DNA of 64,000 nt from Candidatus Eiseniibacteriota bacterium (GTDB taxonomy: Bacteria; Eisenbacteria; RBG-16-71-46; CAZAMP01), in contig OZ245046.1 in the NCBI GenBank assembly GCA_965224245.1, positions 4,608,001-4,672,000 of the forward strand. Reading direction: 5' to 3'. Shown in pieces: positions 3-17,144 of this stretch (within the stretch, counting starts at the first letter, position 1; each line of letters opens with the position of its first letter). The translations under genes and the position numbers were made by a program. The notes under the pieces are model-generated. The model had not been told where the DNA came from. It searched no databases and saw only the letters and a program-made list of their open reading frames with translations.

Positions 3-785
3 CGCGCCACGACGCAGCACGCATTCTGGTCGCTCTTTCTCGACCAGGTGCTCGAGCGCCGGCGGGCTGGGAGCGGAGACGTCGACGGGATCGCCGAGAT
101 CGTCATGGGTCTCTCCCGAGTGCTCCGGAGCTTGACGTCGGGGGCGATCGCCCTCGATCCGCCACGCGGACTCGTCACCCCGATCGCGCCGGTGAGCCGC
201 GCGGCGGAGACGTCGTGGGAGCAGCTGACGTCACTGACCGCCACGCTGCTCGATCAGCTTTTCGAGCACGCCTACTCGCAAGGTGTGGTCAGCTCGGGCG
301 CGTGGACGCCGTACTTCCGGCGCGGATCGCGGCCGATCGCGTCCGAGCCGTGCGCGTGCGGCTCCGGCACGCGGACCGGGCACGGATACGAGAGCGTCAC
401 CCGTGACGGCGTCGTGCGTGCCACGTACGAGTGCGATGCCTGCGGCAAGGTCGCCGACACGGACGGGCGAGGTCTCCTCTCGCTCGTCGAGTGGTCGGGC
501 GTCGCCACGCGCGGCTCGATCTTCCGCTGCGAAGGTCGCGTCCGGGCGCCGGCGACCGAGGCGGTGCTGTTCGCGGCCATTCCGCTGATCGCCGGAGAGC
601 GCGGCCACCGGCACGCGGCGTGGGGAAAGCTCGCGTCGTCCACGGTGCCGGCGGGGCGCGAGGCGCGGGTAACGTTCACGCTAGAGATCTCCGACGACAT
701 GCCCGTCGGTCTGCACAACTTCGCGGTTGTCGCGATCGTGAACGTGGCGCCCTACGTTCTTCGACACTGGCTGGAGATCCGATGA
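3..785 (+). CDS. 5'-truncated hypothetical protein with C-terminal zinc-ribbon (CxC...CxxC) and beta-rich tail
   Basis: Frame is open from the window edge (RATTQHAFWSLFLDQ...). Contains EPCACG...YECDACG. Its TGA overlaps the next ATG (ATGA at 782-785). Confidence 0.7.
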   Translation, partial: RATTQHAFWSLFLDQVLERRRAGSGDVDGIAEIVMGLSRVLRSLTSGAIALDPPRGLVTPIAPVSRAAETSWEQLTSLTATLLDQLFEHAYSQGVVSSGAWTPYFRRGSRPIASEPCACGSGTRTGHGYESVTRDGVVRATYECDACGKVADTDGRGLLSLVEWSGVATRGSIFRCEGRVRAPATEAVLFAAIPLIAGERGHRHAAWGKLASSTVPAGREARVTFTLEISDDMPVGLHNFAVVAIVNVAPYVLRHWLEIR

Positions 786-1960
786 AGAGCGGGCGCGACC
801 GGGCTCGCGGCGGGCTCACCGGCATCATCAGGGGCCGGATCACGCGCCTTCACCGCCTCGGTCGGCGCCTCGCGTTCGCCGACGTCGACGATCAGGGACA
901 GCTCACCTCTCTCGTTCTCGAAGGCGACTTCCCCGACGTGCGCCGCGGCGATCTCGTCACGGCGGCCGGCGAGTGGACGCGGTCCCGCGAGCTTCGGGTC
1001 GCCCGGATCGACGTCCACGGCCGGATCACGGATCTCCGGCGGCCATCGGCCCCGGCGGCCCGTCTGCTCGACCCGCGGCGGCTGGAGGCGCTACGGATTC
1101 GCTCGGCGGCGATTGCCGCCCTGCACCGTTTCTTTCATGAGACGGACTTCGTTCCCGTCGACTCGCCGACGATCGTGTCCGACTGGGTGCGCGGCCAGAC
1201 GGGCGCGTTCAACCTGGACTTCTACGACGAGGACGCGTTCCTGAAGATCAGCAACATGCCCTACCACCAGGTGCTCCTGACCGGCGGCTTCTCGCGCATC
1301 TACGAGATCGGCAAGCTCTTTCGACGCGAGCATCCCAGCTCGATCCACCGACTGGCGGAGTTCACGATCCTGGACGTCAGCTGGACCGGAGCACGTCTGG
1401 ACGATCTGATGACGTTCTTCGAGGGGGTCGTGCGCGCGACCATCGACGCGCTCTCGCCTCGGCGGATGACACTCGTCGAGGACATCCGCTTCGACCGGGT
1501 GACGGTACGCGAGCTGCTCGACGCAGCCAGCATCGAGCGGACGACGGGCGCCCAGCTCCCGGCGCCGGTCCGGCGCCACCTCGAGCGGACCCACTCGAGC
1601 TTCGTGTGGGTGACCGGATTTCCGGCGAGAACACGACCGTTCTACGTCCGCGCATCGTCGTACGACCGGGACGGGGCCGACGCGACCTGCGCGGACTGCC
1701 AGCTCTGGTTTCGGGGTCGGACCTTTCTCGCGGCCGGGGGCGAGGTCGAGTCGGACCGGGCGGTGCTGGAGGCACGCATCCGGGACGAGGGCAAGGACCC
1801 GAGACCCTACGCGTTTCTGCTGGACGCGGTCGAGCTCGGGCTCCACGACGCCGTCGGGATCGGGATGGGCGTCGAGCGGTTCCTGGCCAACGTCTTGACC
1901 CCGTCCACCGTCGCCGATTTCACGCTGTGTCCTCGCTATCGCGGCCACGTCACGCCGTGA
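782..1960 (+). CDS. Divergent class IIb aminoacyl-tRNA synthetase-like protein (Asp/Asn/Lys-RS family: OB fold + catalytic domain)
   Basis: OB-fold-like IRGRITRLHRLGRRLAFADVDD; motif 1 HRFFHETDFVPVDSPTI; motif 2 YEIGKLFRRE...HRLAEFTILD; motif 3 GIGMGVERFL. ATG 782 is coupled to the upstream stop. Confidence 0.85.
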   Translation: MKSGRDRARGGLTGIIRGRITRLHRLGRRLAFADVDDQGQLTSLVLEGDFPDVRRGDLVTAAGEWTRSRELRVARIDVHGRITDLRRPSAPAARLLDPRRLEALRIRSAAIAALHRFFHETDFVPVDSPTIVSDWVRGQTGAFNLDFYDEDAFLKISNMPYHQVLLTGGFSRIYEIGKLFRREHPSSIHRLAEFTILDVSWTGARLDDLMTFFEGVVRATIDALSPRRMTLVEDIRFDRVTVRELLDAASIERTTGAQLPAPVRRHLERTHSSFVWVTGFPARTRPFYVRASSYDRDGADATCADCQLWFRGRTFLAAGGEVESDRAVLEARIRDEGKDPRPYAFLLDAVELGLHDAVGIGMGVERFLANVLTPSTVADFTLCPRYRGHVTP

Positions 1961-1980
1961 CCTTCGAAGGAGTCAGACCG

Positions 1981-2757
1981 ATGAGCGCCCACCGCCCGCT
2001 TCACCAGTCGCCCCTCGATGGCGACGAGTGGCGTCGCATCGCCGCCAACTACGACCAGGAGCGTGACGCGCACTCGCTGCCCGCTGCGCTGGTGGACGAC
2101 CTGGTGGTCGATCTGGCCGGTGTGGATCGATCGTCCGTGGTGCTCGATCACGGTGCGGGCACGGGTACTCTCGCCGCACGGCTGGCTCCCCACGCCGGTC
2201 GCGTGCTGTGCTACGAGCCGGGCCCCGAGATGCGGCGCCGGCTGGAGACGCGGGCCGAGACGCTGGAGAGCGTGAGCGTGGTCTCCGATCCGAGCACGCT
2301 GGCGGACGAATCGGTCGACGTCGTGCTGAGCGTGAACGTCCTCGATCACGTACCCGACGTCGCACCCGTGCTCGCGCTCTTTCGGCGCGTCTCGAGACCG
2401 ACTGGTCGCGTACTGGTCGTGCTGCCGCACCCGCTCAAGGATCTCGGTCACTGGGTACGCCGGCGCGACGACGGCGGTGAGTGGGTATACGACCACTACC
2501 TGCTTCAGGACTACCTCCGCGAGGGGCTGTGCGCGAAGAGCCGGGAGGACCGACACGGGAATCGCGTCGTGACCGACTTCGTGAGTCACCACCGGAGGCT
2601 CTCGACGTACCACCGATGGCTTCGCGACGCGGGCTTCTCGATCGATGACCTGCTGGAGCCCGAGCCGCCCGCGTCGCTCGCGCGATCACACCCGATCCTG
2701 TACCAGCAGTGCTCGCGGATTCCGTACTTCGTCGTGCTCGCGTGCTCGCCCGGGTGA
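1981..2757 (+). CDS. Class I SAM-dependent methyltransferase
   Basis: VVLDHGAGTG motif I, then DVVLSVNVLDHV and PTGRVLV. GAAGGAG RBS upstream of ATG 1981. Confidence 0.85.
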   Translation: MSAHRPLHQSPLDGDEWRRIAANYDQERDAHSLPAALVDDLVVDLAGVDRSSVVLDHGAGTGTLAARLAPHAGRVLCYEPGPEMRRRLETRAETLESVSVVSDPSTLADESVDVVLSVNVLDHVPDVAPVLALFRRVSRPTGRVLVVLPHPLKDLGHWVRRRDDGGEWVYDHYLLQDYLREGLCAKSREDRHGNRVVTDFVSHHRRLSTYHRWLRDAGFSIDDLLEPEPPASLARSHPILYQQCSRIPYFVVLACSPG

Positions 2758-2835
2758 CGCGGGCGGTGGGATGCGCGAGCGTGGATGCTCGCCGGGCATT
2801 CGGCGGGGCCGCAGCGGACCCGCCACGCCGGCCTC

Positions 2836-3507
2836 TCAGCTCGGGGACGGGATCCGCGTGCCCTCGAACACCCACTCGGCGCTGACGTAGGGGCGACCGG
2901 TGTCGATCTCGCCACCGTGCACCTCGTGGATCAGGCGTAGCGGCACGAAGTACGGCCGCGTCTCGTGGAGAACGCTCTGGCGCGTCATGAAGTGATGCGT
3001 GACGCCGTCCTCCATCGGATCGTCACAGATCCACGTGAGGTGGTCGATCCGCTGGCCCTTCCCCATCAACGACGACTCGGTGGAGATGAACGTGCAGAAG
3101 TACAGCCCGCCGGCCCGGACGACGCGTGCCGCCTCGCGGATGGCGTCGCGGACACCGTCGAGCTCGGCGTGCGAGATCACCGCACGGCAGACCACCGCGT
3201 CGAAGACGGCGTCGTCGTATGGGAGGTGCCGCATGTCGGCCAGCGCCAGCACGGGCGAGAGCCCCGCCCGTCGCGCGCGCTCCCCGGTCACGCGCGTCCC
3301 GGTGGGCGAGAGGTCGACCCCGTGGACCTCGTAGCCCAGCCTCGCGAGGTAGATCGCGTGACGGCCGGCGCCGAACCCGACGTCGAGAATCGTCCGAACA
3401 TCCTCGCGCGCGGCGAGCGTCTCGGTCGCGAACCGGACGACGTCCTCCGCCGGATCTTCCAGGCAGTTCACGGGATCTTCGAAGAGCGCGTCCCAGTCCA
3501 TCGGCAT
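2836..3507 (-). CDS. Class I SAM-dependent methyltransferase
   Basis: ILDVGFGAGRH, GVDLS, ADMRHLPY, FDAVV, RVVRAGG. GAGGGAG RBS. Confidence 0.9.
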   Translation of the reverse strand: MPMDWDALFEDPVNCLEDPAEDVVRFATETLAAREDVRTILDVGFGAGRHAIYLARLGYEVHGVDLSPTGTRVTGERARRAGLSPVLALADMRHLPYDDAVFDAVVCRAVISHAELDGVRDAIREAARVVRAGGLYFCTFISTESSLMGKGQRIDHLTWICDDPMEDGVTHHFMTRQSVLHETRPYFVPLRLIHEVHGGEIDTGRPYVSAEWVFEGTRIPSPS

Positions 3508-6109: not shown

Positions 6110-6331
6110 GTGCCCGCTACCTCGTCCTGGGTGTGGCTCGCGTGGAGCGCTCGTGGGGCGGTGCCCCGGCCGTCGCCTAGCGTTATCGGGCTCGCGGATC
6201 CAGACCTGAACCGGCCGGCGAGCCACCGCGACCCCGGCGCTTTTCACACGTCGAGTGCGCCTGCTAGACTCGCGCGCGCACGGTTCACCCGGCCGTTCTC
6301 GGCCGATCACAACACCGCAACGGGACCCCGC

Positions 6332-15739: not shown

Positions 15740-16121
15740 GTCGAGGTTCCTCCAGTCGGTCGCGGGCGTCGCGCGGCCGCGGTCGCCGTTGGTCGCGGGC
15801 GGGTGGTTGCGCTGGCCGCGTGGTCCGGGTCCACCGGCAATCTAACGGCTCGGGACCCGCGTGGATACCGCGAGCGGGGAGCTCGGGCGTCGTCGCCGCC
15901 AGAGGTGCACCCGCCCACCGGGCGATCCGCCAAGACGCTTCCGCCACGACACATCGAGCGTCGTCGCACGGCCCCCGGCGACACGCTCAACGAGGGGAAC
16001 CCGCGCGGTTTTGCCCGCGTAGAACGGGTTTGACCCCGTGCCCCCAAGCCGGTCATCGTCTCCGATGCGTCCACCAACCGACCCCGGGCTCCGCGCTCGC
16101 GGTGAACGTCGAGGACCACGC

Positions 16122-17144
16122 ATGAGATCGATCCGGCACCCGCTCCCACGCCCTGGCTCGTACACGCGGCCGTCCCTCGGGAGCAGCCCCGGCCGCCGCC
16201 TCGGGCTCGCCGTCGCCGCGTTCGCGGTGACGACCACATTCGCCGCCTCGGGCCAGGCCCGGGACGCCTCCGACGACGACGAGGCGGACGGCGGCGAGGG
16301 TCGCGCCAAGATCTACCGCTCGTACCGCGGCCTTCGCACGTATGCCGCCGAGGACACCATCCCGCTCCTGTACGTCTACGGCGACGAGGTCGAGGTGGAG
16401 GCCCAGCGGATGTCGCTGGACGAGATCCTGGCCACGTGCATCGAGGCCGAGAGGAACAAGTACGCCAGCGTCGAGGACATCCAGTTCACGACCACCGAGA
16501 AGGCCGTCCTGTACTACGGGAGCGAGCCCACGCCGGAGACCCGCCACGACGTGGTCGAGGAGGTCTCGCGCGTCTACGCGAAGCAGCCCGACCGCCTCCA
16601 GACGGTGCGGCTCGATTCTCGCGAGTTCACCGTCGAGCCCGGCGACGACGGCAGGATGACGCGGAAGCCCAAGGACGAGAAGAAGGACGACGGCCCGACG
16701 GTACAGGTGCGGGCCACTCGCGAGGATCTGAGCGACCTGCCCCTGTTCTTCGAGGACATGTCCGAGTACGTCTTCGACATCGTGGACCGGCGCGATCTCG
16801 AGACGCGCGTGCTGTATCGCATCTCGTTCACGCCCCGCTCGGAGTTCGAGCCGCTGCCCGCCGGGGAGTTCTGGATCGACACCGCCGACTTCCAGATCGT
16901 GCACGCCGACCTGACCTGGGAGGACAACGTCCCGTTCCCGATTCTCCTGAAGGGGATCGACCACTTCTCGATCGAGAAGAAGCGCGTGGGGGATGTGTGG
17001 GTGTACGACCGGATCTCCGGCCGGATCCGCATCCGCAAGATCCCGTTCGTGGACGTGCCGCAGGTCCTGGAGGTCGTCGTCACGTTCTCCGACTACGTCC
17101 TCAACCAGGGGCTCTCCGACGATGTCTTCGCTCTCGACGAGTAG
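16122..17144 (+). CDS. Secreted hypothetical protein (resembles N-terminal part of DUF5686-type outer-membrane proteins)
   Basis: Signal peptide; YRISFTPR...GEFWIDTADFQIV...FSDYVLNQGLSDDVF. GAGG RBS. Confidence 0.6.
   Translation: MRSIRHPLPRPGSYTRPSLGSSPGRRLGLAVAAFAVTTTFAASGQARDASDDDEADGGEGRAKIYRSYRGLRTYAAEDTIPLLYVYGDEVEVEAQRMSLDEILATCIEAERNKYASVEDIQFTTTEKAVLYYGSEPTPETRHDVVEEVSRVYAKQPDRLQTVRLDSREFTVEPGDDGRMTRKPKDEKKDDGPTVQVRATREDLSDLPLFFEDMSEYVFDIVDRRDLETRVLYRISFTPRSEFEPLPAGEFWIDTADFQIVHADLTWEDNVPFPILLKGIDHFSIEKKRVGDVWVYDRISGRIRIRKIPFVDVPQVLEVVVTFSDYVLNQGLSDDVFALDE

Follow-up and report, generated by a model that had tools for sequence, protein, structure and literature searches.

A class IIb aminoacyl-tRNA synthetase paralog linked to dCTP-deaminase-like genes: a possible biosynthetic operon for an aminoacylated cytosine nucleoside or nucleotide

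What does an aminoacyl-tRNA synthetase (aaRS)-like gene do beside a series of tailoring enzymes, in a genome that has its own housekeeping synthetases? The question is raised by a stretch of 64,000 nucleotides from a Candidatus Eiseniibacteriota bacterium (assembly GCA_965224245.1, contig OZ245046.1; G000:C1:4608001-4672000, hereafter the window), whose first letters fall within a gene. A sequence-only reading had described a 392-aa class IIb aaRS-like gene followed by a methyltransferase, with a second methyltransferase converging on it. All three were reproduced: the aaRS-like open reading frame (ORF) starts with an ATG at 782 and ends at 1960 on the plus strand, followed by MT1 (1981-2757, plus strand) and MT2 (2836-3507, minus strand). 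That reading took the gene for an aaRS paralog at the end of a biosynthetic or modification cluster, which activates a non-standard amino acid or serves as a self-resistance copy. We find that the paralog belongs to a rare family with a conserved neighborhood. On balance, it seems probable that the operon makes an aminoacylated, decorated cytosine nucleoside or nucleotide, in which the paralog would act as an aminoacyl-transferring enzyme like AbmF or AcmF.

The encoded protein matches PF00152 (tRNA-synt_2) in Pfam with 146 bits over residues 95-385. Four PF00152 genes are present in the genome: a bacterial-type aspartyl-tRNA synthetase (AspRS, with QSPQLYKQ), a class II lysyl-tRNA synthetase (LysRS), an asparaginyl-tRNA synthetase (AsnRS, with GGSQREE) and the gene of the window. 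Since separate AspRS, AsnRS and LysRS genes are found elsewhere, the window gene is a paralog rather than a housekeeping enzyme, as proposed earlier, and its being the only Asp/Asn-RS of the genome is ruled out. None of the specific NCBIfam equivalogs accommodates it. It scores highest on the non-discriminating AspRS (NF003483; 134.6 vs a cut-off of 353), followed by TIGR00458 (108.9 vs 368), AsnRS (93.5 vs 414) and LysRS (61 vs 468), and the amino-acid ligases are missed as well (AsnA, 66.4 vs 368; EpmA, 51.4 vs 286.9). The closest solved sequences are the archaeal AspRS structures 3nel and 1b8a (E ~1e-29). An AlphaFold2 model of the paralog (mean pLDDT 82.4) aligns by Foldseek over the full length of 1b8a, including the oligonucleotide/oligosaccharide-binding (OB) domain, with a TMq of 0.79; in the sequence, the N-terminal OB fold matches PF01336 with 16.5 bits, under the cut-off of 27. 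Because the model matches a full-length archaeal AspRS including this domain, binding of tRNA by the paralog is structurally possible.

Relatives of the paralog are few. A word-based search of 5.8 billion proteins returned 19 at 36-46% identity, mostly of ~390 aa, and a profile search of 1.84 billion representatives recovered a family of 28 proteins at 350 bits or more, plus three shorter fragments. Beyond these 28, full-length proteins fall to 246 bits or less, and canonical archaeal-type AspRS sequences begin at ~200 bits. The family is recognized by the signatures SDWVxGQTGAF, ISNMxYHQ, SFVWVTGFP and DxQLW(Y/F)xG..(Y/F)LAAGG. A weaker set of 410-455-aa proteins (P0046-P0063, 190-246 bits) carries part of the signature (ISNxLYH, DxQLW) and may represent sister families of paralogs that occur in other contexts. 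A quick LG+G4 tree search on 23 family members and 8 canonical class IIb enzymes, which gave long-branch warnings on the LysRS outgroup, places the family on one side of a branch with an SH-aLRT support of 99. By this phylogeny, the paralog family is monophyletic and distinct from the canonical class IIb enzymes. It is absent from 40 genomes of the same family or class, in which four matches at 28-31% identity group with AsnRS. No match was found among 72,556 plasmids or in IMG/VR viral contigs, and the matches in 50,697 phage records are limited to 6, at 23-26% identity, which are presumed without inspection to be canonical aaRS.

True relatives with their surroundings were obtained from 13 loci, 4 from 185,579 species genomes and 9 from JGI metagenomes. 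After near-identical contigs were merged (L024 = L025; L015 = L027 = L030; L013 = L029) and this genome was added, ten distinct loci remained, spread over four phyla; the named ones belong to a metagenome-assembled genome (MAG) of what we take to be the phylum Bacillota, a Chitinophagales MAG, Varibaculum timonense and a Pseudonocardiaceae MAG. We compared the neighborhoods by tblastn with all proteins of the cluster. Genes resembling dCTP deaminase (DCD) adjoin the paralog in 8 of the 10 distinct loci, and the contigs of the other two (L028, L032) are cut on that side. The neighborhood, whose conservation the sequence-only reading had proposed to check, is conserved, with DCD-like genes as its most frequent component. 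They mostly occur as an a/b pair; L024 has a single copy, which keeps both motifs (TLEL, IDPGF) discussed below. Other partners are shared by smaller sets of loci: the carbamoyltransferase by four (window, L014, L015, L028), a methyltransferase type termed MTc by four (L014, L015 and L028, together with the carbamoyltransferase, and L031), CmoA with MT1 by four (window, L013, L016, L026), and a B12-binding radical S-adenosylmethionine (SAM) enzyme by two (window, L013). The window operon unites CmoA, MT1, the radical SAM enzyme and the carbamoyltransferase.

The gene had also been placed at the end of a larger cluster, and the upstream sequence bears this out. When the window is extended by 18 kb upstream (L007; window position = L007 position - 18000), its left edge proves to hold the last part of an operon of nine translationally coupled genes (G000:C1:4598977-4610757) whose core is conserved across phyla. 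The first five genes encode the B12-type radical SAM enzyme (L007:8977-10728), DCDb (L007:10725-11216, ATGA overlap), DCDa (L007:11213-11761, GTGA overlap), the carboxy-SAM synthase CmoA (L007:11751-12494, 11-nt overlap) and a TobZ/NovN-type carbamoyltransferase (L007:12511-14220). The paralog, with an N-terminal OB fold and a class II core, is the penultimate gene (L007:18782-19960); its ATG at window position 782 overlaps the TGA of the upstream frame (783-785) as ATGA. MT1, of 258 aa, is the last gene (L007:19981-20757), starts 20 nt past the paralog and is preceded by a GAAGGAG ribosome-binding site. Since the genome has a GC content of 70%, frames were set by tblastn with neighbors from other loci together with GC content at third codon positions (GC3), which is 0.83-0.91 across the genes of the window and the operon and thus supports these ORFs as real genes. 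By the same means, a 762-aa "DCD fusion" and an 820-aa "carbamoyltransferase" were rejected as over-extended frames and resolved into the radical SAM enzyme, DCDb, DCDa, CmoA and the carbamoyltransferase.

The set of DCD-like, carbamoyltransferase, CmoA, methyltransferase and B12-binding radical SAM genes is of a kind used in nucleoside tailoring. CmoA passes TIGR00740 (216.8 vs 193.3 bits), as does its counterpart in L026 (241.8 bits), and is the only CmoA in the genome. MT1, like MT2, is a class I SAM methyltransferase in Pfam and NCBIfam scans; the co-occurrence of its orthologs with CmoA makes it a candidate carboxy-SAM-dependent carboxymethyltransferase. Among solved structures, those nearest to the carbamoyltransferase include TobZ, the novobiocin carbamoyltransferase and GdmN; the top match was deposited under the bare name "Carbamoyltransferase". 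By type, the radical SAM enzyme is a B12-binding methyltransferase, and it falls far under every equivalog cut-off.

DCDa barely passes the dCTP deaminase equivalog (94.7 vs 92.8 bits) and is the only protein of the genome above this cut-off, and DCDb stays under it (45.8 bits). Aligned to M. tuberculosis Dcd (2qxx), DCDa has TFQL for TLEL and KSG for KSS; DCDb retains RSSLGRLG and TLEL, with IGHLG in place of IDPGF. The glutamate of the TLE motif is presumably the catalytic residue of dCTP deaminase, and with glutamine at this position in DCDa, at least one of the two paralogs is unlikely to deaminate. Active sites of the dCTP-deaminase fold lie between subunits. The complementary motif losses suggest that DCDa and DCDb form a hetero-oligomer with altered chemistry.

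The active site of the aaRS-like paralog was compared in an alignment of the 23 family members with the 8 canonical enzymes. As noted in the sequence-only reading, the window protein contains LKISNMPYHQ and GGEVE while keeping the arginines of motif 2 (R181) and motif 3 (R366). The motif 2 arginine and the adenine-stacking phenylalanine are present in 23 of 23 family members and are kept in canonical enzymes too. The positions of QSPQxYK and GGxR are presumably those by which AspRS recognizes its substrate. In the family, the QSPQxYK segment becomes ISNMxYH, with histidine in all 23 members at the position of the Asp-binding lysine. The arginine of GGxR is found in 14 of 23 members, compared with 7 of 8 canonical enzymes, and is replaced by valine in the window protein. 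Two acidic positions ahead of GGxR, which we take to be Mg2+ ligands of AspRS and LysU, are likewise changed: the first is Gln in 23/23 of the family vs Asp in 7/8 canonical enzymes, and the second is Tyr or Phe in 23/23 vs Glu in 7/8. At motif 3, the arginine of canonical enzymes is retained by 21 of 23 family members, L014 and L028 having leucine instead; a further 23 representatives include 7 that lack it. These changes suggest a loss of amino-acid activation, most strongly in the subclade without the motif 3 arginine.

Candidate suppliers of an activated amino acid are encoded nearby in related loci. A genuine canonical aaRS is co-located in 4 of the 10 distinct loci. In L014, a full seryl-tRNA synthetase (SerRS; 481 bits, cut-off 302) comes immediately after the paralog, and a second SerRS is found elsewhere in that genome. 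A non-discriminating AspRS (438 vs 353 bits) follows the DCD pair in L013/L029. In L026, a histidyl-tRNA synthetase (HisRS; 340.8 vs 286.75 bits) and then a tRNA-His(GUG) gene lie directly upstream of the paralog (L026:3791-5396); the tRNA is canonical, with an encoded G-1, C73 and CCA. A bacterial AspRS stands in L016 beside decayed remnants of the paralog, DCD, MT1 and CmoA, with a second AspRS elsewhere; these facts on L016 rest on genome G044, which is flagged as unpublished and needs the permission of its depositors before publication. The GGxR arginine is retained in the paralog of the AspRS-linked L013, and is Met in the SerRS-linked L014 and Ile in the HisRS-linked L026. The changes at the Mg2+ positions, the loss of the motif 3 arginine in one subclade and the co-encoded aaRS and tRNA genes together suggest that the paralog transfers a pre-activated standard amino acid. 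Activation of a non-standard amino acid, as first proposed, finds no direct support. The idea of a self-resistance copy is not supported, since the residues of the substrate pocket differ throughout the family, the family is linked to DCD-like genes and not to one aaRS target, and the plausible resistance or donor enzymes in other loci are the separate, genuine SerRS, AspRS or HisRS.

Precedents exist both for the decorations and for the transfer. In albomycin, the cytosine carries an N4-carbamoyl and an N3-methyl group (AbmE, AbmI), and the carbamoylated cytosine has been modelled as an adenine mimic (PMC8323819). Compounds like microcin C (McC) receive a carboxymethyl group via carboxy-SAM, by the CmoA homolog MccS, as well as a carbamoyl group by MccY (PMC8323819), and the resulting carboxymethylcytidylate warhead inhibits AspRS (PMC8323819, PMC9239234). 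The aaRS-like AbmF forms the aminoacyl-nucleoside bond with serine activated by AbmK, the SerRS of the albomycin cluster, which also confers resistance (PMC8323819, PMC9032320). AcmF, a truncated aaRS-like protein without key activation residues, moves alanine from Ala-tRNA onto a nucleoside, the Ala-tRNA being made by AcmD, an extra, resistant copy of alanyl-tRNA synthetase (AlaRS) (PMC12945691).

It is because the decorations match these known warheads, and because of the AbmF/AbmK and AcmF/AcmD precedents, that we read the operon as an aminoacyl-cytosine cluster. The anatomy of the genes, the paralog status, the rarity of the family, the conserved neighborhood and the families of the neighboring genes are observed; a small-molecule output, the role of the paralog and any choice of acceptor atom, amino acid or target are inferred from them. 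A precursor derived from CTP or dCTP would be handled by the DCDa/DCDb hetero-oligomer, and the base would be carboxymethylated by CmoA and MT1, and also carbamoylated. The class IIb paralog, with no role left in translation, would attach an amino acid to the nucleoside scaffold, probably taken from an aminoacyl-tRNA or aminoacyl-adenylate that a genuine aaRS has made. As a product, an antibiotic that inhibits an aaRS or mimics aminoacyl-tRNA is probable.

The comparison with each known system has two sides. L014 resembles the albomycin cluster in having a carbamoyltransferase, an aaRS-like gene, an extra SerRS and a methyltransferase as a quartet. The window cluster differs in having no AbmH/AbmD pyridoxal-phosphate enzymes, thiosugar radical SAM enzymes, nonribosomal peptide synthetase or siderophore genes, with the dCTP-deaminase-like pair present instead. 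The logic of a paralog working with a canonical aaRS, and in L026 also with a tRNA, is that of AcmF/AcmD and of the class I enzyme SbzA. AcmF, however, derives from AlaRS, a class IIc enzyme, and its acceptor is a 5'-O-sulfamate, whereas the present paralog stems from archaeal-type AspRS/AsnRS, keeps the OB domain and belongs to a family paired with differing types of aaRS (Ser, Asp, His). The microcin C-like systems (MccB, MccS, MccY) share a CmoA-type carboxy-SAM synthase and a carbamoyltransferase for a cytosine nucleotide warhead, and AspRS genes adjoin two of the CmoA-type loci (L013, L016). Unlike in those systems, no ThiF-like MccB was found among the ORFs of the operon with Pfam and NCBIfam, and the amino acid would be added non-ribosomally by the aaRS paralog; no precursor peptide gene was recognized in the operon, where small precursor ORFs were not searched for. 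Non-translational acceptors are also served by the aaRS-derived AsnA, EpmA (PoxA/GenX) and SlgZ of class II and GluQRS of class I, none of which is linked to dCTP-deaminase-like genes. AsnA and EpmA have no OB domain, the present paralog misses their equivalog cut-offs, and it has other residues in the pocket and at the acidic pair. In streptolydigin biosynthesis, the AsnRS-like SlgZ works with a methyltransferase (PMC5357945). A literature search, which did not cover the supplementary gene tables for albomycin and McC, returned no description of a cluster joining a dCTP deaminase, an aaRS paralog and a carbamoyltransferase or CmoA. Aminoacyl-nucleoside pathways with an aaRS-like enzyme are of a known kind, of which the present family, with its link to DCD genes, seems to be a new form.

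Several observations weigh against such a cluster. The window paralog still has R181 and E183 of motif 2, the adenine-stacking F194 and R366 of motif 3, and an invariant D305, two residues before Q307, could stand in for the lost acid; with these residues, the paralog may still activate an amino acid directly with ATP. The housekeeping LysRS of the same genome (G000:C1:2286061-2287857, minus strand) also has a Gln at the first acidic position (FQVLV), which makes that change by itself weak evidence. The likeness to AbmF and AcmF is one of described function. AbmF homologs have been described as "hypothetical proteins", while the present family scores 146 bits on PF00152, so that their sequences may be unrelated. 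The operon of the window was found to contain neither a canonical aaRS nor a tRNA nor a recognizable exporter, and no enzyme was recognized there for a non-hydrolysable linkage such as an amino sugar, sulfamate or phosphoramidate. A search with PF00152 found no second AspRS in the genome that carries L013 (G041, a 2.2-Mb MAG), and the AspRS of L013 may be the housekeeping enzyme of an incomplete MAG. By tblastn, none of the 13 other loci contains an equivalent of two genes in the middle of the operon, for a STAND/TPR protein and an orphan. The independent loci number only ten, no product is known, the role of the DCD-like pair is not accounted for, and CmoA together with an OB-fold aaRS paralog would suit nucleic-acid modification too.

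A more specific form of the aminoacyl-cytosine proposal is tentative, and we regard it as possible rather than probable. The operon would belong to a modular antibiotic pathway, of a class not described before, in which a tRNA-binding paralog moves Ser, Asp or His, as set by the genuine aaRS or tRNA of each cluster, from aminoacyl-tRNA onto a cytidine or deoxycytidine nucleotide. This nucleotide would be processed by a heteromeric, catalytically split dCTP-deaminase-like complex, and its cytosine would be made adenine-like by carbamoyl and methyl or carboxymethyl groups. Made without the ribosome, such a product would correspond to the warheads of microcin C and albomycin, but with an aminoacyl group, and hence an aaRS target, that could be swapped.

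Modification of a nucleic acid is the alternative that survives best, though we consider it unlikely. A base in tRNA or DNA would be carboxymethylated via carboxy-SAM, and the paralog would then attach an amino acid to it, much as GluQRS attaches one to the queuosine of tRNA-Asp. The retained OB domain, of the anticodon-binding type, would suit such a role, as would the tRNA-His gene directly upstream of the paralog in L026, a DNA N6/N4 methylase gene close to the paralog in L032, and a gene for a DrmC-like nuclease of the phospholipase D (PLD) family 74 nt upstream of the operon. CmoA, too, passes its equivalog cut-off, and its known roles are in the modification of tRNA and phage DNA (PMC12783734). 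In the phage CmoA-CmoX-CmoY system described there, CmoA gives carboxy-SAM for the carboxymethylation of cytosine by CmoX, a homolog of DNA C5-methyltransferases, and CmoY, an AsnB-type ligase, then adds an amino acid in an ATP-dependent step, amidating 5-carboxymethyl-dC in DNA with glycine (PMC12783734). At the present locus, the transferase is instead a class I methyltransferase of small size and the ligase a paralog of class IIb aaRS, whose family was not found in the phage records, IMG/VR contigs or plasmids searched. Half of the loci have the paralog and DCD genes without CmoA, and an equivalent of the PLD gene is absent from the 13 other loci compared. Enzymes of the dCTP-deaminase fold act on free nucleotides, and the named solved relatives of the carbamoyltransferase are small-molecule tailoring enzymes. 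L015, in which an ATP-grasp gene resembling L-amino-acid ligases and a major facilitator superfamily (MFS) exporter are added, and L014, with its extra SerRS, better fit a secreted toxic metabolite.

With the arginines of motifs 2 and 3 and the phenylalanine that stacks on adenine all kept, the window enzyme could also be an amide ligase like AsnA or CmoY, which adenylates a carboxylate on a nucleoside intermediate, for example a carboxymethyl group, and amidates it. AsnA, a carboxylate-adenylating amidase derived from class IIb, offers a precedent, to which the paralog has a weak match (66 bits), and amidation of carboxymethyl-cytosine with glycine is known from phage CmoY (PMC12783734). We find this role quite improbable. 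The AsnA cut-off is missed widely (66 vs 368 bits) and the family keeps its OB domain; loci without CmoA still hold the paralog; one subclade has no motif 3 arginine, which is needed for the use of ATP; and the co-encoded SerRS, AspRS, HisRS and tRNA-His genes point to aminoacyl donors.

We give similarly little credence to an anti-phage or conflict system based on nucleotides, in which the DCD-like proteins would deplete or alter dCTP, the STAND/TPR, caspase/C25-like and PLD proteins would serve as sensor and effectors, and the paralog would be an accessory. dCTP deaminases are known defense genes, the PLD protein matches DrmC models, the operon itself encodes the AAA_16/TPR protein and the peptidase-like orphan, and the paralog is patchy across phyla, its copy in L015 lying in an island between an IS3 transposase and a tmRNA gene. 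Yet the conserved partners are tailoring enzymes, the STAND, orphan and PLD genes are confined to this locus among those compared, and the Gln at the TLEL glutamate of DCDa makes deamination by at least one of the pair unlikely. No PADLOC model matched the paralog, the carbamoyltransferase, the STAND and orphan proteins or the long ORF that spans DCDb, with DCDa, CmoA and the radical SAM enzyme, in their revised frames, outside the scan; the only PADLOC matches at the locus are the DrmC-like one for the upstream PLD gene and weak methyltransferase ones.

A working synthetase, be it a copy of AspRS or AsnRS that resists a drug or an enzyme that loads a non-canonical amino acid onto a tRNA, would explain the predicted two-domain architecture and the motif 2 and 3 arginines of the window protein, but is highly implausible given that every aaRS equivalog cut-off is missed by more than 200 bits, Asp recognition is changed throughout the family (QSPQ..K to ISNM..H, with R to V in the window protein), the second acidic Mg2+ position is Y or F in 23 of 23, housekeeping AspRS and AsnRS are present, and related clusters hold separate genuine aaRS genes.

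Few natural inhibitors of aaRS are known, among them albomycin, microcin C, ascamycin and agrocin 84, and they are prized as leads for antibiotics. The type of cluster described here reuses both known cytosine decorations of such warheads, and its core, a class IIb paralog with a DCD-like pair, is different. If the aminoacyl-cytosine interpretation is correct, the paralogs would be a new enzyme family for aminoacyl-nucleoside bond formation, and the dCTP-deaminase fold would acquire a new function. The signatures SFVWVTGFP and DxQLW beside DCD genes would then provide a handle for genome mining, and the target might be read from the co-encoded aaRS.

The remaining genes of the operon occur in this locus alone among those compared. 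The STAND-type protein (gene 6, L007:14272-16494) was classed as AAA_16 plus TPR with Pfam. It is followed by the 764-aa peptidase-like orphan (gene 7, L007:16491-18785 = G000:C1:4606491-4608785, GTGA overlap), and the two (L007:14272-18785 = G000:C1:4604272-4608785) form a translationally coupled insertion into the operon, between its tailoring genes and the aaRS-like paralog, and have no paralog in the genome. The orphan starts 1.5 kb ahead of the window and reaches into it at 3-785 on the plus strand with its C-terminal 260 aa, which contain a CxC...CxxC zinc ribbon. The "Zn-ribbon protein" of the sequence-only reading, described as coupled to the aaRS-like gene, is therefore correct as to the ATGA coupling and the cysteine motif, but it is the last 260 residues of a 764-aa ORF rather than a standalone protein. 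No Pfam, NCBIfam or PADLOC match was obtained for the orphan, and the word-based search of 5.8 billion proteins returned it alone. Its nearest ESM Atlas clusters, with scores of 0.94-0.97, are annotated as Actinomycetota hypothetical proteins or "C25 family cysteine peptidase", the sole source of the C25 lead; possible caspase/C25-like His (VNGHS) and Cys (STGCN) motifs were read by eye.

Directly upstream of the operon (L007:6071-8903), at a distance of 74 nt, lie a helix-turn-helix (HTH)/TPR regulator gene and a gene for a PLD-family protein with two HKD motifs. The latter scores 72 bits against the DrmC models of DISARM, under the cut-off of 133, and neither gene has a counterpart in the 13 other loci compared by tblastn. 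At the other end, no intrinsic terminator was detected downstream of MT1. None of the 13 loci compared by tblastn has an equivalent of MT2 (223 aa) next to the paralog, and MT2 is therefore probably not part of the system.

The related loci have features of their own. A YqcI/YcgG-family gene stands at the start of the L026 cluster, and a tRNA-Met gene (6219-6295) lies just upstream of that of L013. In Varibaculum timonense (L015), the cluster is located between an IS3-type transposase pair and a tmRNA gene (L015:6670-7895, 16056-16431), an arrangement resembling a genomic island. L024 (162-6020) combines its canonical-looking single DCD with a short gene for an asparaginase/GatD-like N-domain and a different methyltransferase; a ParA-like ATPase gene is found nearby, and this locus may reside on a plasmid or other mobile element.

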